DNA of 64,000 nucleotides from a virus (lineage: Duplodnaviria > Heunggongvirae > Uroviricota > Caudoviricetes). How positions within the stretch are numbered: the stretch's first letter is position 1; each line of letters begins with the position of its first letter. The DNA lies in IMG/VR virus record IMGVR_UViG_3300047444_000299, positions 1 to 64,000 of that record; one strand, given 5' to 3'. Of the stretch, positions 45,657 through 59,564 are shown one piece after another. The translations under genes were made by a program, and so were the position numbers. The notes under the pieces are model-generated. The model searched no databases. It was not told the DNA's origin and was given only the letters and a program-made list of their open reading frames with translations.

Positions 45657-45814
45657 TCAAAATCGAAGACTGGATTCTAGAAGACATCCGAAGACTCCGT
45701 AAAATCCCCCAGCCATCCAGAAGCTCCGACGAGCATCAATACTTAAAGCTGTTGATGGAATACAACAATAAGGTTGAAGAATTCAATATCAGGCTTCGGC
45801 GGTTGAAGAAATGA
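45653..45814 (+). CDS. hypothetical small protein
   Basis: 53 aa. Confidence 0.3.
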   Translation: MIKIEDWILEDIRRLRKIPQPSRSSDEHQYLKLLMEYNNKVEEFNIRLRRLKK

Positions 45815-46374
45815 AGAAAGTGGCTGGTATCGGTATATACGAAAAGGGTAAGTACCCTGCATCAATTACATTGAATGGTGAAACCACCCAAACCAAGGCG
45901 TATAAGGATTGGGTCAATCTATGTAGTTTCTGTGGGTCTGAATCCTACCTGACCCAGAGTCCGTCGTATGTCGGTAAAATCCTTGACCAGCAATGGATCA
46001 AATTCCAAGACTTCGCGGAATGGCATTCAGAGAATCATAGGGAAGGGTGGGTATTATCCACCAGTTGTTCCAATTTGATTGGCCCTGATACCAGCTTTTT
46101 TGTCCCTAGGGAAGTGATGCAATTCATCAATCCCCGAAAGAAACCTATGGTCGTGACCAAAACCCATGTCAAGTTGTCCATGACCCTACAAGGGGTTGAA
46201 TGTACATTCGGGAAATATCGAAACATCCCGGACGCCATGATGGTCTATAGCGGACTGTTTCTGGTAGAGATTACCAGATTGATTAAAGAATATGCCCTAT
46301 CTGAATGGTTGGGCGGCAAGTTGAAAACATTAGCAAACACCACACCGAATATCCGGTATGCGAAAAATATCTAA
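45811..46374 (+). CDS. homing-endonuclease-like protein (paralog of 11933..12550 core, without AP2)
   Basis: GIYEKGKY...YKDW...SYVG...FQDFAEW...IGPDTSFFVPREV shared with the rnlA-pseT intergenic gene. Confidence 0.45.
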   Translation: MKKVAGIGIYEKGKYPASITLNGETTQTKAYKDWVNLCSFCGSESYLTQSPSYVGKILDQQWIKFQDFAEWHSENHREGWVLSTSCSNLIGPDTSFFVPREVMQFINPRKKPMVVTKTHVKLSMTLQGVECTFGKYRNIPDAMMVYSGLFLVEITRLIKEYALSEWLGGKLKTLANTTPNIRYAKNI

Positions 46375-46388
46375 AGAGAATTGAAAGA

Positions 46389-46865
46389 ATGAACAAAAAG
46401 AACATCGCTGTCGCCCTTTGCTTCGAAAACATCAGTACCTTGATGAACGGCCAATTTGAATCAATGGAAGAAGTATTGAAGGATGTCAAGGACGCTATTG
46501 CTGGTTTGGATGAACCCGCCAATGGTGATTTAGGCGAGCTGACATTGGTGATGATTTCCGCCCAAGATGATGAAACCCAAGATACCATCGATGAAGCCAA
46601 TCTACTGGGGCAAATCCTTGAGCATTGGTTCGGCCCATCCTTGGCTAAACTCGCCATGTCCGGTAATGTCGAAGTTGGTATGACGGTGTATCTGTATAAT
46701 CCGGGTCAGGCTGGAATCGTCGGACGGGTGATTGACTTTGATACCGAAACCTGTGACGAACCTTATATTGGGGTTGAATGGTTGAATGAAGACGGGGATG
46801 TTATCGCTGGTAGTGCTGGTGGCCCGGAAATGTTTACATCGGTATTTGATTACCCTATGCTGTAA
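46389..46865 (+). CDS. hypothetical acidic protein
   Basis: 158 aa. Confidence 0.45.
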   Translation: MNKKNIAVALCFENISTLMNGQFESMEEVLKDVKDAIAGLDEPANGDLGELTLVMISAQDDETQDTIDEANLLGQILEHWFGPSLAKLAMSGNVEVGMTVYLYNPGQAGIVGRVIDFDTETCDEPYIGVEWLNEDGDVIAGSAGGPEMFTSVFDYPML

Positions 46866-46907
46866 AAATGTAAAAGATGTAGGGGAAAAGTTTTAGACCA
46901 GAATTTT

Positions 46908-46987
46908 TTGGTGGGAAATTTTTTTGGAATCGACATTGGGGAAACTTTTTGTCGATTTCTATATGGTGGGAAATTTTTTTGGAATCG
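46908..46987. repeat. 23-bp direct repeat GGTGGGAAATTTTTTTGGAATCG x2
   Basis: two identical copies about 55 bp apart in an ORF-free region. Confidence 0.7.
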
Positions 46988-47058
46988 GGTAGGGTGTCTA
47001 ATAACCTGCCCAAAACCACTAAACTGCCAAGGAATCCATAGGTATGGAACCTTAAATT

Positions 47059-47107
47059 CACCCCCTCCCCACCCCCGGCACCCCCACCACACCACTAGCC
47101 CCTCCCC
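47059..47107. repeat. C-tract cluster (CCCCCTCCCCACCCCCGGCACCCCCACCACACCACTAGCCCCTCCCC); G4-prone on complement
   Basis: six or more C-runs of 4-5 within 49 nt. Confidence 0.7.
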
Positions 47108-47384
47108 ATTCGGAATAGAACTAGTATCCACCACTCACTAGTCTACCATATCAATTCCCAATAGTTCAACCCTATTCTACTACCATTCATCCGTTCCCGA
47201 ATCGATACACAATAGACTCCATTCCTTTGCATCAATTCCTAACCCATTGCATCAAACTCCCTAGTAGTCTGTAAGCCTCTGTAGTCGCGTATAACCCGTG
47301 ATAGAATCAAATCCACCTAATGCCCTAGGCTATACCATATCGAGTCCTATAGATCATTGTAGTTCGATTGAATCATATTAGAAT

Positions 47385-47472
47385 TGATTGCATCAAATGC
47401 TTGACACACTCACTGTATGGTATAGAATGAGCATACACCAACCGAAACCCTGAACCATATAGGAGTTACACA
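47385..47472 (+). promoter_or_regulatory. promoter TTGACA-N16-TAGAAT + conserved leader (CACCAACCGAAAC..AGGAG)
   Basis: near-consensus hexamers, leader shared with downstream cassettes. Confidence 0.6.
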
Positions 47473-47778
47473 ATGTCTAAACGTACTGAATTCGAACTAC
47501 TCGAAGCGCATCTAACCCTACAACTGAAAAAGCATGTCGAAGCCAAGACTACCGGGAAACCATCAAAGAAAGGTTCTAAGGTAGCTCGGGACTTTATCCA
47601 AGTGTCTATGTTGTGTGGTAAGTGGTCATTAGATGGGATGCATTACATTCCGCTTGTGGTTGATGTTGAGGCGATTGATAACGCTATAGCCGAAATGGAA
47701 GCAAAGAAAGCTGCTAGGGCATTGGGTTATCAGGACCGAGATATCAAGGTCGAAGGGTTTGTAAAGGTTAGTAAGTAA
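47473..47778 (+). CDS. Lys-rich small basic protein (possible DNA/RNA-binding)
   Basis: 101 aa, strong promoter + SD. Confidence 0.5.
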   Translation: MSKRTEFELLEAHLTLQLKKHVEAKTTGKPSKKGSKVARDFIQVSMLCGKWSLDGMHYIPLVVDVEAIDNAIAEMEAKKAARALGYQDRDIKVEGFVKVSK

Positions 47779-47869: not shown

Positions 47870-47897
47870 TTGACACCATAAAAACCCATGCCATACT
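47870..47897 (+). promoter_or_regulatory. sigma70-like promoter TTGACA-N16-CATACT
   Basis: lies about 130 nt upstream of ATG 48031. Confidence 0.45.
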
Positions 47898-48030: not shown

Positions 48031-48507
48031 ATGCGCCAAGTATCTAAAGCTGCTCAGGAACAAACTGTTACCACAAACGTTCTGGAAACCGCTACTACCG
48101 CGTTGTCACTCGCGGAGGATGCATTGATCAAGGCTAAAGAAGCTTTGGCCGCTGCTGGGGGTTCCAAGGGCTCTAAAGGTGGTTCCAAGGGTAAGGCTGT
48201 GACCATTCAACCCCAAACCCCTGTAAACGGTTCTGATGCGTCCAAGGGATCGGCTGGACGTAACCCAAGCCCGGAACAACTCGAAATTCGATCTGCGATT
48301 ATCGAGGCTTTGCAGTCCGGGGAAATCCGATTCTTTACCATTGCCGAAGTTACCGACGCAATGAAAGCCGATAGAATCCAAACCCGAAACGCGGTTAACT
48401 ATCTGGAAGCCCAAGGGGTAGTAACCCGATACGGTGAAAAACTCCCAGAAGGTCGCGGCCAGCGGGAACTGATCTACAAGGCCGGGACCATTCCACCGGT
48501 TGCCTAA
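48031..48507 (+). CDS. putative winged-helix DNA-binding protein with Gly/Ser/Lys-rich linker
   Basis: disordered GGSKGSKGGSKGK segment; C-terminal wHTH-like region. Confidence 0.45.
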   Translation: MRQVSKAAQEQTVTTNVLETATTALSLAEDALIKAKEALAAAGGSKGSKGGSKGKAVTIQPQTPVNGSDASKGSAGRNPSPEQLEIRSAIIEALQSGEIRFFTIAEVTDAMKADRIQTRNAVNYLEAQGVVTRYGEKLPEGRGQRELIYKAGTIPPVA

Positions 48508-48527
48508 AAGATCCTGATAAGCTCTAA

Positions 48528-48551
48528 AGCCCCTTAACCGGGGCTTTTTTG
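48528..48551 (+). terminator. rho-independent terminator
   Basis: AGCCCC-TTAACC-GGGGCT + TTTTTT. Confidence 0.75.
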
Positions 48552-48562: not shown

Positions 48563-48590
48563 TTGACAATCTGTTTCAATGGGTTACATT
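48563..48590 (+). promoter_or_regulatory. sigma70-like promoter TTGACA-N16-TACATT
   Basis: upstream of the 48640 ORF. Confidence 0.45.
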
Positions 48591-48639: not shown

Positions 48640-48870
48640 ATGAAACTGTTTTATGTAGCAATCTATATGGTTGTGTGTAGTCTCCCTGTAGCGTTCCTGT
48701 CAATCTATATGGCATGGGATAGGACTCCCCCAAACCTGCGCCTAGTACAGTTGGATCAAATCCTTAGAACCGGTTCCCTGACCTATATCGGGTTGATTGT
48801 CGGTAGTCTGTTGGTGTTTCTGGTTTGGCTGATGCTTCCGGGTGACCGGGTTCGCAATGTGTATCAGTGA
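48640..48870 (+). CDS. small membrane protein (2 TM)
   Basis: 76 aa. Confidence 0.45.
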   Translation: MKLFYVAIYMVVCSLPVAFLSIYMAWDRTPPNLRLVQLDQILRTGSLTYIGLIVGSLLVFLVWLMLPGDRVRNVYQ

Positions 48871-49439
48871 ATAATTGCTGAATTTGATGGAATTCTAGTG
48901 AATTATTCTGAATGGTTCCGGGGCTGATTAGTGAATTCTGCTGTAATTTGATGCTATTGCGGGATTTGATGCATTTATTATTGCATCAAAATATTGAACA
49001 CTCACTAGGCAGCCCGAACGAATTCCCCATTTTTCTGTAACGTTTTCGATACACCGTAACGTTTTCAATACACCACATAAATTTTCGATCAATTCAATTC
49101 CCCAACCATTTCCGAACCATTCCTAAGCTGATTCTATTACCTTCCAACCATTCCAAATCTATATCTATTTTCCTGATATTCTCCCCTAAAAATATGCATA
49201 ATACCAATATACATTATGGATTTAATCAATCCCAATATATGGGATGATTTTGATTGATTTAGGCTTGCATTCTGTTCTGAATCTGCTAGGCTATTGTCTA
49301 TTCACTAATGCTTTTCTAACCTTCTAATGGTTATATGACTACTCACTTGATGGCTGGATTGATTGTTATCGGGTTGTTGCTATCCCTAACCGGATCAATG
49401 GTTTGTGGTTATGGTGATATGCCTAGGCATTCCCTTTGC

Positions 49440-50030
49440 TGGATTATTTGGTTTGATATCTCTATAGGTATGTTGGGGGTATCCCTGCTATTGCTTATTG
49501 GTTTGATGATGTTCTAGGGGTTTGATGATGTTCTATATGGTTTGGATGATATCATTGGTTTGTGATGGTTTGATGATCTATGCGGTTCAATGCATGGTTA
49601 AACATTCGTTTTGGCAGGTGGTGGTTTTTGATTCATCCTTATTGATTAGTGGTATTGCAATGTTTGTGGTATTGTGCTATGGGTTTAAATCTCTGCGGCT
49701 TGTTCGGTTGAATAGGGGTTGATATTATGTTTCGGTTGATTAATGCTTTAGAGGTTTGCGGCTGGTTTGGATTGATTTGTGTTTCTGGTTTGATTTTGGA
49801 ATCATTCCGGGTTATCATTTGATTCTACTGATTGAGGGGATTTGATCATGGTTACTATGATTCTAGGCTTCGCGGTATTGCTGGGGTTTTTGTTTCACTA
49901 TTGCCCGGTTGATACTGCTAAGGGTTGATATTCTGCTAGGTTTGGGGCGATTCTGGTGGAATATTAGCATTTAGGGTTTGCATTTAATTTTGAATTGGTT
50001 TATTGTTTGATTTTGATTTAATCACTTGAC
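49440..50030. repeat. iteron-like degenerate GGTTTGAT / GGTTGAT repeat array
   Basis: more than 20 occurrences of GGTTTGAT-like words, including tandem GGTTTGATGATGTTCTA x2. Confidence 0.6.
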
Positions 50031-50042: not shown

Positions 50043-50396
50043 ATGACTCTGTATAACTCTATCAAATTGTTGGAAGCGTTCCGGGACTTTTGTTTGTCTA
50101 AGGGCAAATCGGTTATTGTTCACATTGAACCGGGTAAGGGTGCAAACTGGAATGTTTGCGCGGTTGGTCAATTCGGGGAATTCAAAAAGGTAAAGGTCGG
50201 GAATTGGGGCCGGGGCCATACAATGGCCGAAAAGCTGTCTGATGCGTTTGATTGTTTCAATAACCGTCAAACCTATCAGGATTTGTGTAAAGCTGATCGA
50301 GCCGAGGAATTGTTCCCGACATTCGATAAGCTGGCGGTTCGATTGACTGCTGATATCGAAGCATTCCAAGCCCAATGGATGAAAGCTAAAAAGTAA
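50043..50396 (+). CDS. hypothetical protein
   Basis: 117 aa. Confidence 0.45.
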   Translation: MTLYNSIKLLEAFRDFCLSKGKSVIVHIEPGKGANWNVCAVGQFGEFKKVKVGNWGRGHTMAEKLSDAFDCFNNRQTYQDLCKADRAEELFPTFDKLAVRLTADIEAFQAQWMKAKK

Positions 50397-50399
50397 TTT

Positions 50400-50457
50400 G
50401 CATTTGATGCAATCCCCTGTATACTGCTGATACCAACCAAATACAGGGGATTTGAAA
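50400..50457 (+). promoter_or_regulatory. PeSL-like cassette (stem-loop + TTGCAT-N16-TATACT + conserved leader)
   Basis: TTGCATTTGATGCAA palindrome, TATACT, CCAACCAAATACAGGGGA leader. Confidence 0.55.
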
Positions 50458-50841
50458 ATGGCTTTAGAAATATCGGCGGTATCTGATCTGTTTAACTACG
50501 GTATGACTGAAGACGGAACCCCTTTTATAGCTGAACGTTATTTCATAGAAGCCGAAGCGACTAACGGCCAGCGTTGGATTCATACCGCACGGTTTGATTC
50601 TGTTGTCAAGGTTGACGGCGGCGAAGAATGCGACGGAATGGTATTTTTTGAAGACCATCGCCAAGAAGCAAGCGATAAATGCGAAGCATTGGCCGAACGT
50701 ATCCGGTTATTCATGAATGCCGGTGGTAAGCTTGATCCTGTACACTGGATTGAATCTGATCCTAGATATGGTTCGAATGCCTATCAAACCCTAGATTCAC
50801 AAGGATATTTCCGGGATCTGGAAAGAAAAGAAGAATATTAA
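50458..50841 (+). CDS. hypothetical protein
   Basis: 128 aa after cassette. Confidence 0.5.
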   Translation: MALEISAVSDLFNYGMTEDGTPFIAERYFIEAEATNGQRWIHTARFDSVVKVDGGEECDGMVFFEDHRQEASDKCEALAERIRLFMNAGGKLDPVHWIESDPRYGSNAYQTLDSQGYFRDLERKEEY

Positions 50842-50845
50842 GCAT

Positions 50846-50870
50846 AAGCCCCTGATTCTAGGGGCTTTTT
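50846..50870 (+). terminator. rho-independent terminator (family C: AGCCCCTGATTCTAGGGGCTTTTT)
   Basis: identical at 58604, 60314 (1 mismatch) and 61886. Confidence 0.8.
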
Positions 50871-50880
50871 ATTTCTTCAA

Positions 50881-50955
50881 AATAATTGCATCAAATTGCT
50901 TGCATTGGTCTGGGGTTGGGTTATACTGACCATACACCAACCGGAGACATCAACC
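50881..50955 (+). promoter_or_regulatory. PeSL-like cassette (type a: TTGCATCAAATTGCTTGCATT-N15-TATACT + leader)
   Basis: conserved with about 30 other copies. Confidence 0.55.
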
Positions 50956-51189
50956 ATGAAATCCAAAATCAAAGTTACCGTACAAGTTGAAGACTACAAA
51001 GGCAATATGGTTGATGTTGTTGGATGCAAAAGCCTGAAACAAAATATCCACGGTAACTGGGTTGGTTATGTTGGCCGGGAACGTATCGAAAACTTTAGCT
51101 GCGCATTTGATGCCGCCCAATGGTTCCTAGGCGCTGATATGGCTGGCGACGAAATCACCGCTTTCATGACCAAACATATCATGCATTAA
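50956..51189 (+). CDS. hypothetical protein
   Basis: 77 aa. Confidence 0.5.
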   Translation: MKSKIKVTVQVEDYKGNMVDVVGCKSLKQNIHGNWVGYVGRERIENFSCAFDAAQWFLGADMAGDEITAFMTKHIMH

Positions 51190-51267
51190 TTGATGCAAAG
51201 GGGCTTGCATTTGATGTAAACCCCTGCTAGAATGATCTTACACCAACCAAATACAGGATTCGCCAAC
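51190..51267 (+). promoter_or_regulatory. PeSL-like cassette
   Basis: GGGGCTTGCATTTGATGTAAACCCC hairpin, TAGAAT, leader. Confidence 0.55.
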
Positions 51268-51579
51268 ATGAAATTTTACAGCCTCCCAGTGAACGTACAA
51301 GCTCAAGTCAAAGCCGAATGGATGGCAGGTAAGATCATGTCGGCTAATGATCGTATGCGGTACTTTGCCCAAAATGGCTACAAAACAGCGGCGGAATATC
51401 ATCAAGCTGTACTAGCCGAAGCCCCAACCGTTGAAGAACTGAAAATAATCATTATCGAATTGATGAAATCCCGGTTTATCCAACATGGTTTTGAGGACTG
51501 GATGAATCAAATCCCTAACGCGGCCATGATCTGCCGTAACTATAACGAACTGGTCATGATGACTAAGGCCGGGAAATAA
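51268..51579 (+). CDS. hypothetical protein
   Basis: 103 aa. Confidence 0.5.
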   Translation: MKFYSLPVNVQAQVKAEWMAGKIMSANDRMRYFAQNGYKTAAEYHQAVLAEAPTVEELKIIIIELMKSRFIQHGFEDWMNQIPNAAMICRNYNELVMMTKAGK

Positions 51580-51648
51580 TTTCATCAAAGGGGTTGCATC
51601 AAATGCAGCCCCTGCTATACTGATGACACACAAACAGGAGTTACCAAC
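51580..51648 (+). promoter_or_regulatory. PeSL-like cassette
   Basis: hairpin + TATACT + leader with AGGAG. Confidence 0.55.
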
Positions 51649-51861
51649 ATGCAATTGATCAAAGCGGTTGACGCGAAGCTGGGCAACATTATAGCCATGC
51701 CGGTGACTGTCCATACTGGGGTTGTCCAAATGGTTATGGGCAAACTGGTATCCCGGACGTTTGAAGACGTTGACGGCTGGATTACCTTGACCATTGAAAC
51801 CAAGGCCGGTAAGGTCGCGCATGATTATCCCTTTGATGATTTGATTGTAAAGGAGGTTTGA
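51649..51861 (+). CDS. hypothetical protein
   Basis: 70 aa. Confidence 0.5.
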   Translation: MQLIKAVDAKLGNIIAMPVTVHTGVVQMVMGKLVSRTFEDVDGWITLTIETKAGKVAHDYPFDDLIVKEV

Positions 51862-51863
51862 AC

Positions 51864-51980
51864 ATGATCGGCCAAACCCGGATAACAAAGAAAGAGTTTT
51901 ATAAACTCGGTGGTTTGTCAAATCCTAAGTTGTTTCGCAAATCCGCTAATGGTGTTTGGTCCTATTGGAAAGGGGAATAA
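51864..51980 (+). CDS. mini-protein (38 aa)
   Basis: AAGGAGG SD 7 nt upstream. Confidence 0.4.
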   Translation: MIGQTRITKKEFYKLGGLSNPKLFRKSANGVWSYWKGE

Positions 51981-51983
51981 ACC

Positions 51984-52187
51984 ATGTATAACCATAAGGC
52001 TTTGATGGGGTTGGAAGCGCGTATAAACGATGATCTAGAGGTCATTGGGATTATCACCGATTCCTATCATGAGGGGCAAACCCACTGGCTGCAAATCGAT
52101 GGCAGCTATGAACTCGCTGTGCAAGCGGTGGCGGTTGTTCTGGATCTGGGCAAGGGTACAAGCTTTGCACGTCCTAAAGCGTTCTAG
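51984..52187 (+). CDS. hypothetical protein
   Basis: 67 aa. Confidence 0.45.
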   Translation: MYNHKALMGLEARINDDLEVIGIITDSYHEGQTHWLQIDGSYELAVQAVAVVLDLGKGTSFARPKAF

Positions 52188-52199
52188 GGGCGGTTTAAA

Positions 52200-52320
52200 C
52201 GATATTCTAAACCCGGCATTGTCCGGGTTTTATTTTGTCTATTGGTATTGACAAGCTGTCGGAGAATATGAGAAAATGAATTGACGACCTATATTTGTGG
52301 TTGGCATGAAAATTTCCTCA
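52200..52320 (+). repeat. conserved intergenic element (TTGACA...AATATGAGARAATGAATTGACGACC...TTGGCAYGAAAATTTCC), copy 1
   Basis: three near-identical copies (52200, 53571, 53953). Confidence 0.6.
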
Positions 52321-52400
52321 ATTATTTGCATCAAATTGCTTGCATTCTGTTTTGATTCAATTATACTGACCACACACCAAACGAAATCGGGGGCTACAAC
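52321..52400 (+). promoter_or_regulatory. PeSL-like cassette (type a)
   Basis: as above. Confidence 0.55.
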
Positions 52401-52610
52401 ATGAACCGTAAAGAAGTTTTCCTAAAGATCAAAGCTGTCGCGGCGGTTGATGGTTTTACTAAACTTGACGTGCTGCCGATGTTCAAAGGCGTAGCACCCT
52501 CGGTTGTTGATTCGTACCTGAAAAAAGCGTATGAACTCGGGTTTATTACCCTGAATGCAGGCAACCCGCTTTGCATGTACCCGACTATCAATCTGATCAA
52601 TCTCAAATAA
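52401..52610 (+). CDS. hypothetical protein
   Basis: 69 aa. Confidence 0.5.
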   Translation: MNRKEVFLKIKAVAAVDGFTKLDVLPMFKGVAPSVVDSYLKKAYELGFITLNAGNPLCMYPTINLINLK

Positions 52611-52685
52611 TTTGATGGAAAGGGGTTGTATTTGATGCAACCCCTGTTATACTAACCACACCAAACGAAATCAGGAGTTACCAAA
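52611..52685 (+). promoter_or_regulatory. PeSL-like cassette
   Basis: GGGGTTGTATTTGATGCAACCCC + TATACT + leader. Confidence 0.55.
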
Positions 52686-53015
52686 ATGATCGTTGACCAA
52701 ACCCCAGTAATGAAAACAATCGAAATCAAGATCATAAACCAGTCCGGCGAAGTGGTGTATCATCAATCCGAAATAACTTTCGGCTTCCCGCCAGCCTTTG
52801 TCGGTGCTGTTATCGAAAAGGTTTGCGTCTGCGAATTAGACGATGATGATCATGGTGATTTGAACAACTTGCATGTAATGGGCAATATGTCAAGCCGTCG
52901 ATTCGGTAAGGATTGGGAATTTACAGTTTCGGCGGTTGTTGTTTACCCTAAATCGGTGGGGGTGGCTGATGGCGACATGCACGCCATGTCACTGGCCTAT
53001 AAAAACACCCTGTAA
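52686..53015 (+). CDS. hypothetical protein
   Basis: 109 aa. Confidence 0.5.
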   Translation: MIVDQTPVMKTIEIKIINQSGEVVYHQSEITFGFPPAFVGAVIEKVCVCELDDDDHGDLNNLHVMGNMSSRRFGKDWEFTVSAVVVYPKSVGVADGDMHAMSLAYKNTL

Positions 53016-53092
53016 TTAATTGATGTAAAGGGTTTGACATTTGATGCAAACCCTTTATACTGATCATACACCAACCGAAACAGGATTTGATC
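53016..53092 (+). promoter_or_regulatory. PeSL-like cassette
   Basis: as above. Confidence 0.55.
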
Positions 53093-53320
53093 ATGGCCGC
53101 CACTGAACTGCAAAAATGGCAAGCAATGCAAACTAAAGCACATGCCCAAGCAAATGCGGGGTTTGCATTGTCGGTTAATGTTGAAATGTTGTTGAACCAC
53201 GAACTGCCAGCCGAAAAGATGCGCGAAGAATTGGCAAAGTTTTTGGAAGACTGGAAACAGGGTTGGGATAAAGCAATTGACGATTATGTTCAAACCGGTA
53301 TTAAATTAGGGGAAATTTAA
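53093..53320 (+). CDS. hypothetical protein
   Basis: 75 aa. Confidence 0.5.
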   Translation: MAATELQKWQAMQTKAHAQANAGFALSVNVEMLLNHELPAEKMREELAKFLEDWKQGWDKAIDDYVQTGIKLGEI

Positions 53321-53321
53321 A

Positions 53322-53525
53322 ATGAAAGCAGTTTCATTCTTTACTGATGACATCAAGATCATAGCCCACACCGCAACCCATGCCGATGATATTGGCAAAC
53401 CGATATCAGTCCGGGAGTTTGCGCAAGGCCAGCCGGTAAGCCTGTACACCATGCACAATGGTGACCTGATGCTGATTCGCAATGATGCACACCGGACGTT
53501 TATCGAAGGCCCGGAAATGGTTTAA
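53322..53525 (+). CDS. hypothetical protein
   Basis: GGGGAA SD; 67 aa. Confidence 0.45.
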   Translation: MKAVSFFTDDIKIIAHTATHADDIGKPISVREFAQGQPVSLYTMHNGDLMLIRNDAHRTFIEGPEMV

Positions 53526-53549
53526 ATCAAATCCTAATGAACCCGGCGA

Positions 53550-53577
53550 AAGTCGGGTTTATTTTTGTCTGTACTAG
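53550..53577 (+). terminator. rho-independent terminator (family B)
   Basis: ACCCGGCGAAAGTCGGGT + T-tract. Confidence 0.75.
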
Positions 53578-53640
53578 TTGACACACCCCAGAAAAATATG
53601 AGAGAATGAATTGACGACCCTAAAAACATATTGGCACGAA
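53571..53640 (+). repeat. conserved intergenic element, copy 2
   Basis: as 52200. Confidence 0.6.
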
Positions 53641-53728
53641 AATTTCCCGAATTATTTGCATCAAATTGGTTGTATTGCATCAAATACCCTGTATACTGAC
53701 CATACACCAACCGAAAGAGGCTGCAAAA
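53641..53728 (+). promoter_or_regulatory. PeSL-like cassette (type a)
   Basis: as above. Confidence 0.55.
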
Positions 53729-53920
53729 ATGAAACAGCAAATCATAAAATCCGCTGATGAATCGAAAATCGCTAAAATCAAGTTTGATTCTGAATATCAA
53801 GAATGGCAAGTCCGGTTGTATCATGTTGTAGGCGGTAAAGAAGTGTTTCAAAAGGATGCAACCTATTTCACCACTGATAAAGAAGACGCAACCGGCACCG
53901 CCCAAGCAATGATCAAGTAA
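53729..53920 (+). CDS. hypothetical protein
   Basis: 63 aa. Confidence 0.5.
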   Translation: MKQQIIKSADESKIAKIKFDSEYQEWQVRLYHVVGGKEVFQKDATYFTTDKEDATGTAQAMIK

Positions 53921-53926
53921 GAAAAG

Positions 53927-53951
53927 AGCCTCGGGAAACCGGGGCTTTTTA
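53927..53951 (+). terminator. rho-independent terminator (family A)
   Basis: AGCCTCGGGAAACCGGGGCT + TTTTT. Confidence 0.8.
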
Positions 53952-53952
53952 T

Positions 53953-54049
53953 TGCATCAAATACTTGACCTGAATAAATTTTTCATGTTAAAATGGGCTG
54001 ACGACCCCAAAAAGGTGTTGGCATGATTATTTCCCGAAAAAATTTTAAA
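53953..54049 (+). repeat. conserved intergenic element, copy 3
   Basis: as 52200. Confidence 0.55.
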
Positions 54050-54128
54050 ATAATTGCATCAAATGGCTTGTATTGCATCAAATTAGGCGTATACTGACCA
54101 CACACCAACCGAAACAGGGAACACGAAC
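54050..54128 (+). promoter_or_regulatory. PeSL-like cassette (type a)
   Basis: as above. Confidence 0.55.
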
Positions 54129-54602
54129 ATGAACGCATTTGCCCAAGCCCACAAGTTGACTAAAGAAATCATTCAACCGGGTGACAGCTATGCAGCCACG
54201 TTTGCCCTGTGCCTGAAACACCTAAACCAGAAGGCCAAGACCATGCAAATCAAACCAGAAGCCGTACAGTTTATCGAAACCGCTATTGCCGATTCCAAGG
54301 CTTATATAGCGCGTCTGGAAGCGTTCAAGGCAACCGACCCTAAAGGTTACATTGTAGTCACTGGCTCGGGCCGCATCCCGGTTACATTCAACATTCAAGC
54401 GGATACCGCGAATATCGGCAACATTGAAACCGCGAACCGCTTCAATGATCTGCGGATTGCCCAAGCAATGGGCCGCAAAGTAACCAACGGCAACAAAGAA
54501 CAAGGGGTAGCGGTTTACGTTGTTGACCAAATCGAATGGGAAATCGGTCAACAGCAAAAACTGATCGATGACTTAACCGAAGCCCTGAAAAAACACAAAT
54601 AA
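54129..54602 (+). CDS. hypothetical protein
   Basis: 157 aa. Confidence 0.5.
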   Translation: MNAFAQAHKLTKEIIQPGDSYAATFALCLKHLNQKAKTMQIKPEAVQFIETAIADSKAYIARLEAFKATDPKGYIVVTGSGRIPVTFNIQADTANIGNIETANRFNDLRIAQAMGRKVTNGNKEQGVAVYVVDQIEWEIGQQQKLIDDLTEALKKHK

Positions 54603-54677
54603 ATCAAAATAGGGGTTTGCAATTTGATGCAAACCCCTATAGAATGATCTTACACCAACCAAATAGAGGGTTTGAAC
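54603..54677 (+). promoter_or_regulatory. PeSL-like cassette
   Basis: as above. Confidence 0.55.
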
Positions 54678-55004
54678 ATGGATCACCATTACTACGCATC
54701 ATCCTGCTACGGCTGGGGAACTGGTGACACAAAGGAAGCTGCGATAAAGGAATCGGCAAAGCAACTGGGGGTTAGCACTCTAAGCCGTCATAAACCTGAT
54801 GGGGTTATGACTGTTGTGTGTCGTGTGGCCTTGCCGAAGGCTGCGCACTATTCAATCAGCCACTATATGCCGAATCTGATCACGAAAGAAGACGGCGTAA
54901 ACGATACCCGCAAGGGTGAAACCGTGCCGATATCTGAGGTTGAATATGTACGGGTTGTTTCGACTACCGGGAAATTTAAACCCGCACCGAAAGACCCTGA
55001 ATAA
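54678..55004 (+). CDS. hypothetical protein
   Basis: 108 aa. Confidence 0.5.
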   Translation: MDHHYYASSCYGWGTGDTKEAAIKESAKQLGVSTLSRHKPDGVMTVVCRVALPKAAHYSISHYMPNLITKEDGVNDTRKGETVPISEVEYVRVVSTTGKFKPAPKDPE

Positions 55005-55080
55005 AAATAAAATAGGGGGTTGCATTTGATGCAATCCCCTTTTATACTACTATCACACCAAACGAAATCGGGGCTACAAA
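55005..55080 (+). promoter_or_regulatory. PeSL-like cassette
   Basis: as above. Confidence 0.55.
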
Positions 55081-55320
55081 ATGCATACCATCAAAATCAC
55101 CAAATCCCCACGCGCAATAACCGAAGTCGATGCCTCGAACCTGATGTTTACCGGGTTCCGCCGCATCATGCGCGACGATGAACCATGCGCCTATGGTTCG
55201 ATTGGTTCGACCCTGTACCGTATCGAGTGCGAACCGCCGACCAATGGGGAATATCTGGTTAAGGTTTATATCGAGCAAGAATTGCTTGCATCGGCGTATA
55301 TGGATCGTTTCGACAACTAA
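55081..55320 (+). CDS. hypothetical protein
   Basis: 79 aa. Confidence 0.5.
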   Translation: MHTIKITKSPRAITEVDASNLMFTGFRRIMRDDEPCAYGSIGSTLYRIECEPPTNGEYLVKVYIEQELLASAYMDRFDN

Positions 55321-55389
55321 AATCAAAATAGGGGTTGTATTTGATGCAACCCCTGTTATACTGACCATACCAACTAAGGAGCGGCCAGC
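55321..55389 (+). promoter_or_regulatory. PeSL-like cassette
   Basis: leader ends AAGGAGCGGCCAGC. Confidence 0.55.
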
Positions 55390-55560
55390 ATGTTAGACAA
55401 CAAATTCTCAAAGGGTGACAAAGTGCTGGCCGCTGGCCCTTTTTGGTTGACGATTACCGAAGTACGCGCAAACGGCTGGTATAGCTGCCGGTTTGGTTCT
55501 ATCGGCGGTGATGCTGGATCTTTCCGGGAACGCGAACTAATCCCATATACAGGAGCATAA
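55390..55560 (+). CDS. hypothetical small protein (56 aa)
   Basis: AAGGAG SD; below the ORF-track length cut-off. Confidence 0.45.
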   Translation: MLDNKFSKGDKVLAAGPFWLTITEVRANGWYSCRFGSIGGDAGSFRERELIPYTGA

Positions 55561-55563
55561 TCC

Positions 55564-55878
55564 ATGCCAATGATTACAACCCCCGGCGAATATAAAGCCT
55601 ATATTGACGTTTTCGTTTCGGATAATGGGCATTTGCGCCATATCGCCAGCTTTCAACTAGGTTCGGATTCTAGTCGGGTATTTGCCAAATCATGGCTAGA
55701 CCGGTTTGCCGAACATGGCGAAGCCCTGTTATCTAAGCCCATACAAGCCTATTTGGAAGCTTTGCGGGCGAAAGGCGCAGACCTGACCATCAAACCGCAT
55801 TTAACCGGCTCAGAACGCATCCAGACCCTCGAAGAAATGGAAAAAGAAGACCCGGACATTTTCAAAAACCCGGAATAA
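55564..55878 (+). CDS. hypothetical protein
   Basis: CAGGAG SD; 104 aa. Confidence 0.5.
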   Translation: MPMITTPGEYKAYIDVFVSDNGHLRHIASFQLGSDSSRVFAKSWLDRFAEHGEALLSKPIQAYLEALRAKGADLTIKPHLTGSERIQTLEEMEKEDPDIFKNPE

Positions 55879-55891
55879 CACCAACCCAATA

Positions 55892-55919
55892 GACCCGGCG
55901 AAAGTCGGGTTTATTTTTG
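55892..55919 (+). terminator. rho-independent terminator (family B)
   Basis: ACCCGGCGAAAGTCGGGT + T-tract. Confidence 0.75.
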
Positions 55920-56059
55920 TTCCGGGGTTGCATTTTGTTTTGAGTGTGGTATGCTTTAGTTACTGGGGAGGCCCGGAGGAAATCATCGGAGGAACCTGAG
56001 ATTTGAGTTGGCATGATTCTTGATATAGCAATTTGAATGCCAGAAATTATTTTAAAATA

Positions 56060-56133
56060 ATTGCATCAAATGCTTGCATTGCATCAAATTGCTGCCATAA
56101 TAACCACACACCAACCGAAACCGGAGAAACAAA
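56060..56133 (+). promoter_or_regulatory. PeSL-like cassette (type a, -10 CATAAT)
   Basis: as above. Confidence 0.5.
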
Positions 56134-56343
56134 ATGTCTACTTCTACTAAAGCATTCCTAGCCGCGATTGACATCGAATCGAAAAATGCGATTCTGGATT
56201 CCATCGCCAAGCATTGCGGCATTACCCGTGAAGCCGCGTATGATGAGGTAACAGACCCGGAAGCCGAACACCTGTTAGATTATATGGTCGCGCCGTTTCG
56301 GTTGGGTGCGTCGGTTTTGATGCAAAAACACGGATTCAAATAA
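56134..56343 (+). CDS. hypothetical protein
   Basis: 69 aa. Confidence 0.5.
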   Translation: MSTSTKAFLAAIDIESKNAILDSIAKHCGITREAAYDEVTDPEAEHLLDYMVAPFRLGASVLMQKHGFK

Positions 56344-56419
56344 TTTGATAGAAAGGGGTTGCATTTGATGCAATCCCTTGCCATAATAACCACACACCAA
56401 CCGGAAAGAGGCTTTCAAA
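56344..56419 (+). promoter_or_regulatory. PeSL-like cassette
   Basis: as above. Confidence 0.55.
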
Positions 56420-56725
56420 ATGTCCGATATGACTGTAGCAAATACCATCCGTCAACAACTCGGCGGGCATAAATTCGCGGTAATGTGTGGCGTCAAGCAA
56501 TTTGTAGGCGGTGAGAATTTCCTACAATTCAAAATGCCGTCCAATTTCGCGAAAGATAAAATCAATTTGGTTAAAATTATCTTGACCCCGGCTGATTTGT
56601 ACGATATCGAATTTTATTATGTCCGTGGAATCAACCTGAAAATGGTTTGCAAAGTCGAGGGAATTTATAACGATATGCTGCAAAGCGAATTTACCCGCGT
56701 AACTGGTCTGGATACGCACCTGTAA
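56420..56725 (+). CDS. hypothetical protein
   Basis: 101 aa. Confidence 0.5.
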   Translation: MSDMTVANTIRQQLGGHKFAVMCGVKQFVGGENFLQFKMPSNFAKDKINLVKIILTPADLYDIEFYYVRGINLKMVCKVEGIYNDMLQSEFTRVTGLDTHL

Positions 56726-56802
56726 AAATTTGATAAAAAGGGTTTGCAATTTGATGCAAACCCTTTATACTGATCATACACCAACCGAAACGAGTAACCA
56801 TC
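56726..56802 (+). promoter_or_regulatory. PeSL-like cassette
   Basis: as above. Confidence 0.55.
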
Positions 56803-56964
56803 ATGACCCTGACTTACAAGCAAATCCAGATTATCGAACTAGTCAAGTCCGCTGGTCAAGAAGGCGCGGAGGATATGCTTGTTTGCATGGGTTGGGCGGC
56901 TGACCACAAGGCGGCAAAGGCTATGATTAAAAAGGCCCAAGCTGCGCAAAATAAACCAAAATAA
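56803..56964 (+). CDS. hypothetical small protein (53 aa)
   Basis: follows cassette; below the ORF-track cut-off. Confidence 0.4.
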   Translation: MTLTYKQIQIIELVKSAGQEGAEDMLVCMGWAADHKAAKAMIKKAQAAQNKPK

Positions 56965-56965
56965 A

Positions 56966-57028
56966 ATTTGTATTGCATCAAATTGATGTTATACTGACCA
57001 TACACCAACCGAAACAGGAGTTACAAAA
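56966..57028 (+). promoter_or_regulatory. PeSL-like cassette
   Basis: TATACTGACCATACACCAACCGAAACAGGAG. Confidence 0.55.
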
Positions 57029-57475
57029 ATGAACTATGCAGACAACGGCGAAAACATCAGTAACAAACTGTTTAAATATCTGCCATTGGGCGACATAATG
57101 CGCGTTCGGGCTGGGCATGATCTGGGGCTTTGCCGAATCGTCATGATTCAAGACGATGATTATAACTTTGAGGATCTTTGCGGTGACTGCTACAAGCCGG
57201 AAGCTTGCCCGGATATCGAAGTAACTACATTAGCACGCCAGAAACGAGCATTCCGCGCCCGTGTGAACCGTGAAGGCGTATGGGGCGTGATTTTGCAATG
57301 CCGACCTGATCCAACGTGCGAATGGGTTGACGTGGAATCGGTGTGGGGGTTGGTTGGCAAGGATTTTTTCGAATCAGGCTATGATTCTGAATTTGTCAAG
57401 CTCGCGGATCAATGGTTGATGGAAAAAGTCGATTTTGATTATATGATTGGGTTGATTCGTACCTTTTCAAAATAA
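57029..57475 (+). CDS. hypothetical protein
   Basis: 148 aa. Confidence 0.5.
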   Translation: MNYADNGENISNKLFKYLPLGDIMRVRAGHDLGLCRIVMIQDDDYNFEDLCGDCYKPEACPDIEVTTLARQKRAFRARVNREGVWGVILQCRPDPTCEWVDVESVWGLVGKDFFESGYDSEFVKLADQWLMEKVDFDYMIGLIRTFSK

Positions 57476-57549
57476 AATCAAAATAGGGGGTTGTATTTGA
57501 TGCAACCCCTTGCCATAATAACCACACCAACCGAACCGGAGTTAACAAA
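57476..57549 (+). promoter_or_regulatory. PeSL-like cassette
   Basis: as above. Confidence 0.55.
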
Positions 57550-57840
57550 ATGTCTTTTCGCCTCCCAGCTAAAACCAACCCATTGCGCGCACTGTTTGAC
57601 CTAGAACTGTTGGTCAAGATCGAAAGCCGGGAATTGGTTGTTACCCTGTTCGAAGCTCGCGGTTCGGCTCGCCGGTTGTTTGAATCTGATATCCGCGTGC
57701 AATCGGTTGCCTTTGTCATTGTCGAGGCTAATGGAATGGTTAGCCTTATCGCGTTTGAACGGAACCGCGAACATGGTGGAACCCCAGTTCATAAAATTTT
57801 GTGGAATTTCGGCAAGGCATGGGAAACCATCAAAATTTAA
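57550..57840 (+). CDS. hypothetical protein
   Basis: 96 aa. Confidence 0.5.
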   Translation: MSFRLPAKTNPLRALFDLELLVKIESRELVVTLFEARGSARRLFESDIRVQSVAFVIVEANGMVSLIAFERNREHGGTPVHKILWNFGKAWETIKI

Positions 57841-57914
57841 TTGCATCAAAGGGGTTGTATTTGATGCAACCCCTGCTATACTAACCCCATACCAACCAAC
57901 AAAGGGGTTTGATC
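57841..57914 (+). promoter_or_regulatory. PeSL-like cassette
   Basis: as above. Confidence 0.55.
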
Positions 57915-58004
57915 ATGGGCCAGCCACACACAAACGTCGATACACTGGGACTCTGGTTAGTAACCATTCTGGCGGTATTGTCCGTGGTCTGGACGTTTAG
58001 TTAA
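57915..58004 (+). CDS. membrane mini-peptide (29 aa)
   Basis: cassette-driven; hydrophobic LGLWLVTILAVLSVVW. Confidence 0.3.
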   Translation: MGQPHTNVDTLGLWLVTILAVLSVVWTFS

Positions 58005-58041
58005 TTTCTTGTTAGCCTGACCTTTTCCCGGAGTCTATCCC

Positions 58042-58239
58042 ATGCTCAATGTCATAACCCCAGCTACAAGCTCGCCTAAGCCCCTACAAGGCGTTTTCGG
58101 TCAATACGTGGCATATCGGGCCGAACATAACCCGCTTTCGGGCCGCTGGATGGTTCTGAGCGAGTTTGACCAATGTATTCAGGCAGGTCTAAGCAAGGCT
58201 GCCGCCGAATCGCTGGCGGATACCCTTAATCAAATTTAA
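58042..58239 (+). CDS. hypothetical protein
   Basis: 65 aa. Confidence 0.4.
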   Translation: MLNVITPATSSPKPLQGVFGQYVAYRAEHNPLSGRWMVLSEFDQCIQAGLSKAAAESLADTLNQI

Positions 58240-58315
58240 ATTTGATCCAAACCCTTGACCGGTGGATTTTGTTCTGTAATAATCCACCTATACCAATCGA
58301 AACGGAATTAACACC
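58240..58315 (+). promoter_or_regulatory. PeSL-like cassette variant (TTGACC-N17-TAATAA)
   Basis: leader CCAATCGAAACGGAA. Confidence 0.45.
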
Positions 58316-58588
58316 ATGTTGACCCAAACCAGCCTAAAACATCCGGTTATGCAGGAACGAATTCTCGCCGGGTTGATCGAAGCCCAAGAAAAGGCCGAAA
58401 AGACCGGGCATGGTCGGGCGTATGTCGCGAACTCGAAAAGCAATAACATCATGCGAATCGATGTTTTCAAGCCTGACCAATTGGCATGGCTGCCTAAAGG
58501 CGGCGTCATTGTGTACGGTGCCGAGTCCCGGACCATTACCCCTATGGTCGAGGCGGCATTAGGCTCGAAGCTGTCCGACCTGATCTAA
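58316..58588 (+). CDS. hypothetical protein
   Basis: 90 aa. Confidence 0.5.
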   Translation: MLTQTSLKHPVMQERILAGLIEAQEKAEKTGHGRAYVANSKSNNIMRIDVFKPDQLAWLPKGGVIVYGAESRTITPMVEAALGSKLSDLI

Positions 58589-58603
58589 CCCGGATTCAAT
58601 CAA

Positions 58604-58630
58604 AGCCCCTGATTCTAGGGGCTTTTTTAT
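58604..58630 (+). terminator. rho-independent terminator (family C)
   Basis: AGCCCCTGATTCTAGGGGCT + TTTTTT. Confidence 0.8.
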
Positions 58631-58632
58631 TT

Positions 58633-58718
58633 CTTAAAATAATTTGATGCAACCCCTTGCAATGGTCTGAATTAGGTGTAAACTTACCCCATACCAAACG
58701 AAATCAGGAGTTAAGAAC
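58633..58718 (+). promoter_or_regulatory. PeSL-like cassette variant
   Basis: leader CCAAACGAAATCAGGAG. Confidence 0.45.
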
Positions 58719-59141
58719 ATGAAATTCGAAGCCGGTCAAACCTACGCAACCCGCTCAATTTGTGATGCTGATATGGTCATATCGATTAAGGTTGTATCGC
58801 GTACCGCCAAACGTCTCAAAACAGAAGACGGCAAAACCCTCGGGATCTATGAATATGAGGGGATCGAACAGGTTCGCCCGTGGGGCCGTTATAGCATGTG
58901 CCCAATTATCGGCGCTGATGATCTGGTAAAGGCCAAACAACCAACCCAAGCCCCGGCGGTTAAAGCCCCGGTAACCCTTAACAGCCTGATGGCCGAAGGC
59001 GAGAAACTGTTTACCCCGGATCAATTCAGCGACCTTAAAAACATGTTGGGCGGTCTGCTAGGGGTAGCGATTCAAACCAAACCAGAACCGAAACCAACCG
59101 CGCAAATTATCAACTTTGCCGACTACAAGAAAAGGGGTTGA
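58719..59141 (+). CDS. hypothetical protein
   Basis: 140 aa. Confidence 0.5.
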   Translation: MKFEAGQTYATRSICDADMVISIKVVSRTAKRLKTEDGKTLGIYEYEGIEQVRPWGRYSMCPIIGADDLVKAKQPTQAPAVKAPVTLNSLMAEGEKLFTPDQFSDLKNMLGGLLGVAIQTKPEPKPTAQIINFADYKKRG

Positions 59142-59143
59142 TC

Positions 59144-59494: not shown

Positions 59495-59564
59495 TTAAAA
59501 AGTTTGCATTGCATCAAATAGCTGTTATACTGCTAACACACCAACCGAAACAGGGAATTGAAAC
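59495..59564 (+). promoter_or_regulatory. PeSL-like cassette
   Basis: as above. Confidence 0.55.

Follow-up and report, generated by a model that had tools for sequence, protein, structure and literature searches.

A conserved non-coding spacer and a cassette of small membrane-protein genes in a repeat-rich stretch of a T4-like phage genome

The region considered here is a stretch of 1.1 kb (positions 48871-50030) rich in GGTTTGAT-type words. It lies within 64,000 nucleotides of viral DNA (positions 1 to 64,000 of IMG/VR record IMGVR_UViG_3300047444_000299; hereafter the window), whose source is an uncultivated T4-like myovirus, and belongs to the early "hyperplastic" region of this phage. 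The stretch consists of two parts. The left part, 48871-49334 (NC2, ~460 bp), is a conserved non-coding spacer upstream of a membrane cassette, and the right part, 49335-49928, is best explained as a cassette of four tiny hydrophobic membrane-protein genes. To judge from their sequence contexts, the GGTTTGAT words are by-products of codons, stops, ribosome-binding site (RBS) spacers and a local duplication; they are not binding sites and do not form an iteron array. The best explanation overall, to which we give about an even chance, is a membrane-gene cassette together with NC2 as a transcription boundary or regulatory spacer.

An earlier note on this DNA had described a single low-complexity repeat unit of 1.1 kb beside a DNA-binding protein and had proposed an origin or a partition site. 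The observation is confirmed in part, and another interpretation takes the place of most of the original one. The greater part of the region is what one expects in the hyperplastic region of a T4-like phage; what is new are the conserved elements NC1 and NC2 around a winged-helix gene.

The small membrane-gene cassette

Relatives of the region were found via the winged-helix gene B located upstream of NC2; this gave two IMG/VR contigs and, via the protein collection, 11 more (13 contigs, designated below by L numbers). The cassette of the window comprises the following features.

49335-49517, + strand: small gene 1, 60 aa, two hydrophobic segments; homologue at L001:7755-7937
49528-49722 (start perhaps 49525 or 49522), + strand: small gene 2, 64 aa, two hydrophobic segments; Shine-Dalgarno (SD) sequence AGGGG upstream
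49727-49822, + strand: small open reading frame (ORF) 3, 31 aa, hydrophobic, AGGGGTTGATATT-ATG upstream; RBS matching the clade consensus
49848-49928, + strand: small ORF 4, 26 aa, hydrophobic, GAGGGGATTTGATC-ATG upstream; assigned by RBS and hydrophobicity

The ORFs at 49335-49517 and 49522-49722 had been noticed before as hydrophobic, which they are, and had been dismissed as translations of repeats. This dismissal is contradicted by their homologues and by the frame-specific conservation described below. ORF49335 is matched at the corresponding position of L001 (53% amino acid identity, E 8e-18, ratio of nonsynonymous to synonymous substitution rates, dN/dS, 0.34) and is called as a gene by JGI (P0030). 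ORF49528 has homologues at L016:4001-4195 (62% amino acid identity) and L002:7736-7921 (44%, E 2e-15). The two genes are paralogues with the common motif M(P/V)(K/R)HSFW..FDS. The dN/dS values of the small transmembrane genes are 0.34-0.68, versus 0.10-0.28 for genes B and C of the upstream module.

Shuffles of this stop-poor, T/G-rich DNA yield an ORF of at least 64 codons 43% of the time. Since ORF length is therefore uninformative, the frame specificity of the conservation was tested instead. Frame 0 is the best one in all four homologue pairs: it has the top identity, is free of stops and gives a BLOSUM score 2-8 times as high as any other frame. When the same number of substitutions was placed at random, the observed amino acid identity was attained in 1 of 2000 trials for the pair ORF49335-L001 and in none of 2000 for ORF49528-L016. 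By this comparison ORF49335 and ORF49528 are protein-coding, with conservation in the reading frame alone. The claim that the stretch has little coding capacity thus holds for its left 40% and fails for the remainder.

A block of small membrane-protein genes is found at the corresponding place in every relative, and the selection of genes in it differs. Neighbouring small genes of the relatives have start/stop overlaps (ATGA, TAATG) as well as SD sites. Sequence searches of Pfam, PHROG and PDB with A, B, C and the small ORFs gave nothing significant, and a profile search for the small transmembrane family returned its four input sequences and one further member, nothing else.

Not everything agrees with the coding assignment. 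The ORF lengths are not significant, as stated, and the frame tests against L002 are weaker (165/2000 and 269/2000, p ~0.08 and ~0.13). ORF49335 is without an SD sequence in the window, and homologues of small ORFs 3 and 4 were not found. We infer the coding of these two ORFs from their RBSs and hydrophobicity; L002:7918 and L016:4197 may be related to ORF 4, which would then be a truncated form.

Source of the TTGAT words

The stretch 48871-50030 contains 23 copies of TTGAT on the + strand versus 4 of ATCAA, and the genome rate predicts 4.9. Dinucleotide shuffles of the stretch contain 7.5±2.5 copies, and 23 was attained in 0 of 500. The variants GTTTGAT, GGTTGAT, GATTTGAT and GATTGAT amount to 15 copies versus 1.6±1.3 in shuffles. 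The more than 20 degenerate GGTTTGAT-type copies reported in the earlier note are thus real, and some of them are indeed tandem, in arrays at 49499-49550 and 49556-49577. What does not stand is the single repeat unit, for the two halves of the stretch are of very different composition: 5 of the TTGAT copies belong to the G-poor part 48871-49334 and 16 to the T/G-rich part 49335-49928 (T 44-47%, C 10%).

The sequence context was read for each of the 16 right-part copies. Eight are Leu(TTG) followed by Ile/Met(ATx), three are Phe/Val followed by Asp(GAT), three are T-flanked TGA stops and two are spacers between SD and ATG. Codon usage of the cassette is strongly shifted relative to the long genes of the phage: TTG makes up 60% versus 26% of Leu codons, ATT 65% versus 37% of Ile codons and GAT 100% versus 59% of Asp codons. 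Because T-rich, C-poor codons are combined here with the RBS spacer GGGG-TTTGAT-ATG, the Leu-Ile/Met and x-Asp pairs, the TGA stops and the RBSs all spell TTGAT. The tandem GGTTTGATGATG copies originate from a duplication:

49499-49550, + strand: 19-nt tandem duplication TGGTTTGATGATGTTCTA, x2.6, running from the 3' end of gene 1 into the 5' end of gene 2

This duplication is not present in the relatives. The second short tandem array, at 49556-49577, has a 10-nt unit (x2.1).

The extended RBS consensus of the clade is (A)GGGG(A/T)TTTGAT(C)ATG, in which the spacer (GGGGnTTTGATcATG) is conserved along with the SD sequence. It is seen at 49528, 49727, 49848 and 50458 as well as in L002, L011, L013 and L016; the RBS regions of the window are 49520-49530, 49712-49729, 49832-49850 and 50440-50460.

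Homologous blocks of the relatives have an ordinary TTGAT density, 0-4 per 200 nt versus 4-6 in the window. The excess is therefore a local by-product and not a conserved DNA signal. The proposal that the copies are iterons also disagrees with their irregular spacing and their coding, stop and RBS contexts. One result speaks against the codon explanation: TTGAT occurs 13 times in the ORFs versus 4.3±1.8 after re-encoding with the phage-average codon usage. Such an excess means that the explanation rests on the cassette's own biased usage and on the duplication.

The conserved spacer NC2

NC2 comprises the following elements.

48866-48960: three direct repeats with the core AGKGAATTnTKCTG, at 48866 (3 mismatches), 48897 and 48930; period 31 and 33 bp
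48964-48991: palindrome ATTTGATGCA-N8-TGCATCAAAA, unique in the window
48992-49036, + strand: conserved 45-nt element (TTGAAC ACTCACTAGG..GAAC.AA)
49037-49074: tandem direct repeat 2x19 nt, GTAACGTTTTC(G/A)ATACACC (0.04 expected by chance)
49021-49241, + strand: G-depleted tract, C/G>3, with a maximum C/G of 10.5 in 78-nt windows
49224-49262, + strand: hairpin ATCCCAATATATGGGAT with a T-rich tail, terminator-like or pause-like, just upstream of the promoter
49265-49292, + strand: putative early promoter of the small-gene cassette, TTGCAT-N16-TAGGCT, with the -35 type of the PeSL elements of this phage (see below)

Each of the 13 contigs has a gene-less gap of 448-498 bp after the module of gene A, gene B and a small gene. 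For the four closest loci that were aligned, NC2 has 64-72% identity to the window overall and 69-80% in its first 160 nt, and the synonymous divergence pS of the flanking genes is 0.55-0.68. Judged by these alignments, NC2 is better conserved than synonymous sites and is under purifying selection.

The period of the direct repeats is close to three helical turns, which places all three on one face of the helix, and a spacing of 31-33 bp is also found in L010, L001, the distant L015 and L022, and others; L010 and L023 contain a 21-nt exact repeat pair. Repeats 1 and 3 extend into AATTTGATGG/C. The core has 2 matches in 64 kb versus 0.39 expected, and none outside the NC2 repeats. Arms of the palindrome contain TTGATGCA, a word occurring also in the stems of the PeSL cassettes; the palindrome is invariant in close relatives and shows no compensatory changes. 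The 45-nt element resembles the -35 box and spacer of the gene A promoter, with the -10 box never present, and it is the sole block of NC2 that can be aligned in the most distant loci. It harbors one of the two copies of CACTCACTAG in the window (48999); the other is in NC1 (47132). The two-unit form of the 19-nt tandem repeat is kept in 10 relatives.

The segment 49041-49240 has 6% G and 27% C (67% A+T), the lowest G content in 64 kb. Depletion of G is a stable property of the spacer: in each of the 11 full-length relatives the 150-nt window poorest in G contains 4-9% G, and this holds also where the sequence is unalignable. Tracts with C/G>3 over more than 200 nt occur in the 64 kb in NC1 and NC2 only. 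The hairpin (49229-49245) is weak and AT-rich and is missing the GGGG...CCCC stem of other cassettes; its ATCAATCCCAATATATGGG is conserved in 9 loci. The promoter block at 49265-49292 was missed by a TTGACA-based scan. It is conserved in all relatives, with canonical TATACT or TAGAAT in L013 and L027, and its form suggests an active promoter.

No Rfam match was obtained at gathering thresholds for the whole window or at permissive thresholds for NC1 and NC2. Consensus folding of the 5' part of NC2 (RNAalifold) gave an unfavourable covariation term with invariant stems. The absence of compensatory changes and of an Rfam family favours a DNA-level or sequence-level role of the 5' part. Helical periodicity combined with invariance of the sequence itself points to protein binding on DNA at the repeats, the palindrome, the 45-nt element and the tandem repeat. 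Most likely the repeats in the first 210 bp of NC2 bind a protein, for which winged-helix protein B is the candidate suggested by gene order and predicted fold. The earlier idea of repeat DNA beside a DNA-binding protein is thus retained for the conserved NC2 repeats, which are of the protein-binding type; the motif in question is AGKGAATTnTKCTG and not GGTTTGAT.

Two other features of NC2 were considered and rejected. An 8-codon micro-ORF M(N/Y)KP(L/T/H)K(L/I/V)L-stop in the 45-nt element is observed with conservative replacements in L002 (~6986-7012), L010 (~6012-6038), L011 (~6037-6063) and L016 (~3328-3354). Its start codon is absent in the window (MNKPLKLL), L001 and L013, and the SD sequence is 1 nt from the ATG. 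For the minus-strand ORF 48928-49092 the "ASN" repeats are a translation of GCATCAAAT, the boundaries vary from one relative to another and the ORF is missing from all gene calls. IHF-like matches (CATCAAnnnnTTG) were also noted; they arise where the word upstream of the promoter meets the TTG of the -35 box.

Promoter cassettes of the early region

About 30 stereotyped promoter cassettes are located at 50.4-64 kb of the window (50390-64000), each 5' of a small gene. They follow the pattern aaaataATTTGAT..GGGGTTGyATTTGATGCAAyCCC-TGyTATACT..ACACCAACCGAAAC..GGAG..ATG, with an AT-rich upstream part (ATTTGAT) and the leader ACACCAACCGAAAC. The -35 consensus of these promoters is TTGCAT/TTGTAT and not TTGACA. 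PeSL (promoter-early stem-loop) elements of T4-like hyperplastic regions have been described as combining a stem-loop terminator, made of a G-run and a C-run, with a strong early promoter that is sigma-70-like and AT-rich in its upstream part; they mediate the shuffling of orphan genes (Arbiol 2010, PMC2839356; Comeau 2014, PMC4122927). In sequence the cassettes at 50.4-64 kb fit this description and would be a known kind of element.

Between the membrane cassette and this array two more elements precede the gene 50043-50396.

49941-49975: conserved element TTTGGGGCGATTCTGG..AATATTAGCATTTA, directly upstream of the next feature
49978-50006, + strand: promoter-like TTGCAT-N17-TATTGT, read from the sequence, with counterparts in L001 and L016; it presumably serves gene 50043-50396

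The element at 49941-49975 is recognisable in L001 (~8320-8350), L002 (~8105-8130) and L016 (~4490-4510). Gene 50043-50396 belongs to a small family with the motif FRDFC...W..CAVGQFA, of which L016 has a member at 4560-4907. The family is tandemly triplicated in L001 (8436-9489) and absent from L002, which illustrates the shuffling of cassettes between conserved boundaries. Seven independent assemblies (L010, L011, L013, L015, L016, L027 and L028) stop ~1-5 kb downstream of NC2. Probably these ends are assembly breaks in the repeated array of promoter cassettes rather than a genome terminus.

The assignment of the window to a T4-like myovirus rests on its gene content and its closest GenBank genomes. 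Every long ORF is on the + strand, and the genes include a DnaB-like helicase, a primase, both subunits of topoisomerase II and T4 RNA ligases 1 and 2. Among GenBank genomes, those of Milchi and Astolliot, two T4-like phages of Pseudomonas, are the closest (~68% nucleotide identity over replication genes). An NMNAT-Nudix fusion and NAMPT (an NAD salvage pair) are encoded at 16410-19014, likewise in some large T4-like phages. Searches of 50,697 GenBank phage records by megablast, blastn and tblastn with the region and with genes B, C and 50043 gave no match. Five additional loci retrieved from IMG/VR with TGTAACGTTTTCNNTNCAC proved to be unrelated chance matches. A metagenome scan with GAATTCTGCTGNAATTTGATG gave 3 matches; in the two that were inspected the likeness is confined to 24 nt matching by chance amid unrelated sequence, and the third is without similarity to the window.

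NC2 as a putative transcription boundary

The arrangement of NC2 suggests a boundary between two transcription units. Transcripts coming from gene C, the last gene of the upstream module, would be stopped in NC2, and transcription of the cassette would restart at the putative promoter 49265-49292, so that the membrane genes would be transcribed from their own sigma-70-type early promoter. NC2 would separate the membrane cassette from the A-B-C module and may be the long, factor-dependent counterpart of the PeSL terminator-plus-promoter units that separate the other small genes of this phage. The G-poor tract as RNA would be unstructured, fairly C-rich and untranslated, and could load Rho; the hairpin downstream would be a candidate pause or release point. 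This specific role as a rut (Rho-loading) site we consider somewhat less probable than the boundary as a whole, and it is put forward tentatively.

In agreement with such a boundary, no intrinsic terminator lies between the coding sequence of gene C and the G-poor tract in the window and in L002. In L015 a weak terminator-like hairpin is located inside gene C, ~75 nt before its stop, with nothing else before the tract. Rho-dependent sites between early units of T4 (immediate-early / delayed-early) are established (PMC2988021).

Several facts count against a Rho boundary. In L013 gene C is directly followed by an intrinsic terminator, and NC2 with its G-poor tract is nevertheless retained; the NC2 RNA may not derive there from the gene C promoter. 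Conserved sequence islands are found within the tract, while a rut site needs composition alone; some other or additional function of NC2 is therefore likely. The C content of the tract is moderate in the window (27%), and transcript, terminator and binding at NC2 are all predictions.

The A-B-C module and the twin spacer NC1

Upstream of NC2 lies a module of three genes preceded by a second gene-less spacer.

46866-47472, + strand: NC1, gene-less spacer upstream of A-B-C; no + strand ORF, conserved in relatives
47473-47778, + strand: gene A, 101 aa, own promoter and own terminator
48031-48507, + strand: gene B, 158 aa, promoter 47870-47897, terminator 48526-48547
48640-48870, + strand: gene C, 76 aa, two hydrophobic segments, promoter 48563-48590

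Protein A combines an N-terminal helix with a small alpha/beta domain and has a Lys-rich linker. Its AlphaFold2 (AF2) model has a confidence (predicted local distance difference test, pLDDT) of 60, too low for a structure search, and no Pfam or PHROG match was found for it. In the AF2 model protein B starts with a long helix, which a disordered G/S/K linker connects to a winged helix at the C-terminus; residues 80-150 are modelled with pLDDT >90 and the topology H-S-H-H-S-S. Its best Foldseek matches are winged helices of ArsR, MarR, ROK and TFIIE. Both the Lys-rich nature of the 47473 product and the disordered linker with a winged helix-turn-helix-like C-terminus of the 48031 product had been correctly recognised in the earlier note. 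Protein B has 26 homologues, all without family annotation, and a sequence relation to any solved structure or Pfam family was not found. Gene C has dN/dS of 0.18-0.28 versus relatives, and no intrinsic terminator follows it in the window.

NC1 resembles NC2 in part: they have CACTCACTAG and other words in common and together bracket A-B-C. C/G exceeds 3 over 46996-47280, and 47061-47260 contains 7% G and 42% C; the tract begins at CACTCACTAG. Two TTGCATCAA words 20 bp apart are placed between the C-rich tract and the early promoter of gene A (TTGACA-16-TAGAAT, 47401-47428), in which NC1 ends. Ahead of the C-rich tract NC1 has two direct copies of GGTGGGAAATTTTTTTGGAATCG ~57 bp apart; it also contains the conserved hairpins AATCGACA..TGTCGATT and AAGGAATCCATAGGTATGGAACCTT. 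In L027 a 151-aa ORF is called on the opposite strand of the spacer upstream of gene A and may be spurious. Directly upstream of NC1 the window encodes an HNH homing endonuclease-like protein (phrog_953, E 1e-15); the endonuclease-like ORF and the next one, 45811-46374 and 46305-46865, overlap by 70 nt.

Alternative explanations of NC2

The 5' part of NC2 may act as a cluster of operators at which a phage regulator binds, either B or a different protein that also recognises TTGCATCAA of the early-promoter cassettes. It would then act on transcription timing, by shut-off or titration, with no role in replication. This is unlikely, though it ranks next after the transcription boundary, with which it is compatible. 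The palindrome and the repeats are invariant in sequence without covariation, the TTGATGCA/TGCATCAA word is common to ~30 early promoters, and the long N-terminal helix of B seems suited to dimerisation which, together with the winged helix, would resemble MarR/ArsR repressors. On the other hand, the cluster is ~300 bp from the nearest promoter on either side and the word is absent from the promoters of B itself and of gene C. Having no further copy in the 64 kb, the AGKGAATTnTKCTG core is not a general operator, and the binding is a prediction.

It is doubtful that NC2 (rather than the GGTTTGAT words) is an iteron-type origin, in which B would bind the 31-33-bp repeats and/or the 2x19-bp repeat, the strand-asymmetric tract would unwind or hold an R-loop and early transcription would prime synthesis. 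Helix-phased spacing is indeed found, in form, in the three AGKGAATTnTKCTG repeats and the 2x19-bp tandem and not in the GGTTTGAT words. Periodic direct repeats unique to NC2 are accompanied by the palindrome and the 19-bp tandem repeat, the adjoining tract is 67% A+T in the window and strand-asymmetric, and winged-helix B is encoded 360 bp upstream in 13 of 13 contigs. T4 origins themselves are not united by any motif, and the role of the conserved iterons in oriE is unproven (PMC3016281). However, B contains one winged helix and no further folded domain, whereas plasmid Rep initiators have two, and it is unrelated to T4 RepEA/RepEB. The AT-richness of the tract is not conserved either (L015 has 42% G+C, with 5% G and 37% C); G depletion alone is. 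From 46.1 to 62.6 kb no DnaA box TTATCCACA with at most 1 mismatch is present. The pattern of a MotA-type middle promoter (MotA box, 11-13 bp, TAnnnT) is absent from NC2, and its only match in the window is the early promoter of gene A (47398). Gene orientation is unchanged at NC2, and the cumulative GC skew has no lasting turn there. A link between the sequence of B and the repeat core was sought and none was seen: L013 lacks the core though the recognition helix of its B is identical, and L027 has the same core with a diverged helix. Finally, the twin G-poor spacer NC1 across the module fits boundaries better than a single origin.

A broader version, in which A-B-C with NC1 and NC2 would form a self-contained cis/trans unit with B binding the NC2 repeats, i.e. 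a new T4-like origin or an excisable mini-replicon, is considered just as doubtful. As a mini-replicon it would be excised by recombination by analogy with PeSL mini-circles, with the addition of its own initiator. A partition site, as proposed in the earlier note, does not agree with the neighbourhood: a partition NTPase (ParA, ParM, TubZ) was looked for near NC2 and no neighbour belongs to any NTPase family, and the phage is of the lytic T4-like type.

That NC2 encodes a non-coding RNA, such as a sponge or decoy poor in G, of ~230 nt and ending at the 49229 hairpin, is quite improbable. Such an RNA would account for conservation above the synonymous rate, for the terminal hairpin with its T-rich tail, for the fold z-score of -3.3 on the + strand and for the persistence of NC2 in L013 behind an intrinsic terminator. 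Nevertheless, no sigma-70 promoter is found ahead of it, the promoter-like element being never accompanied by a -10 box. Neither the Rfam search nor the RNAalifold result (unfavourable covariation, invariant conserved stems) agrees with an RNA, and the 31-33-bp periodicity points to DNA.

It is very improbable that NC2 is neutral debris, i.e. promoter cassettes in decay and pieces of genes that recombination has left behind in the hyperplastic region. The 45-nt element does look like a promoter minus its -10 box and the TTTGATGCA words resemble PeSL stems, but NC2 is kept at one place and length in 13 contigs with a flanking-gene dS of ~1 or more, has long invariant blocks and retains G depletion where the sequence is unalignable.

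The model of the earlier note, with all 1.1 kb non-coding, the transmembrane ORFs as artefacts and the GGTTTGAT words as origin or partition iterons, is hardly credible: although TTGAT exceeds both composition and average codon usage and ORFs of such length arise by chance in such DNA, it is already contradicted by the comparative data, namely frame-specific protein conservation and no TTGAT excess in relatives, as well as by the irregular spacing, by the coding, stop or RBS context of each right-part copy and by the lack of a partition NTPase nearby.

Comparison with known systems

Had the iteron reading been taken at face value, the annotation would have gained a false origin and lost real small genes. 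The codon, stop and RBS source of the GGTTTGAT words is a caution for reading T-rich membrane-gene cassettes in general. Like iteron origins (lambda ori/O; RK2, R6K, pPS10/Rep), NC2 has, in form, direct repeats at helical-turn spacing beside a winged-helix gene and a tract that is asymmetric and, in the window, AT-rich. Unlike them, it has just 3+2 repeats and no DnaA boxes, and B is not homologous to Rep or O. T4 oriE differs too: with its 12-nt iterons it lies inside baseplate gene 5, whereas NC2 is not syntenic with it and lies in the early hyperplastic region; repEB/repEA are coding sequences of 138/153 nt (~45/~50 aa) antisense to gene 5, and the neighbour here is a 158-aa winged-helix protein. 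Should NC2 prove to be an origin, it would join the small number of T4-type origins for which both initiator and site can be recognised.

The early regions of T4-type phages encode small membrane proteins, e.g. Imm-type superinfection-exclusion proteins. In a general comparison these are similar to the products of the cassette in size (60-80 aa), in the two hydrophobic segments, in early expression, which is predicted for the cassette, and in their location in variable regions; the small genes here differ in having no similarity to any Pfam or PHROG family.

With Rho-dependent terminators NC2 shares an untranslated tract of 200-280 nt that has C/G of 3-10, is predicted to be unstructured and is followed by a hairpin. 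The length and composition of 49021-49241 agree with what such tracts have (at least ~80 nt with C well above G), and the upstream gene, gene C in the window, is without an intrinsic terminator. The differences are the conserved islands in the tract and the intrinsic terminator ahead of it in L013; termination at NC2 is a prediction from sequence. If the Rho boundary is true, NC2 would give sequence definition to one of the early/delayed-early junctions whose existence in T4-type phages has long been inferred from T4. An element of the NC2 type belongs to a T4-like clade without a cultured member in GenBank.

PeSL elements are the closest comparison for the surroundings of NC2. NC2 itself differs from them in length (~460 bp versus ~100 bp), in having no G/C-run stem-loop, in its periodic direct repeats and long G-depleted tract and in being single-copy save for the partial likeness to NC1. 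The small genes of this phage, in contrast, are arranged as in PeSL units (AT-rich part, stem-loop, sigma-70-like promoter, leader, SD, ATG). A sigma-70-like early promoter is predicted both in the cassettes and at 49265-49292, and, as with PeSL elements, relatives have a shuffled set of genes between boundaries that are conserved.

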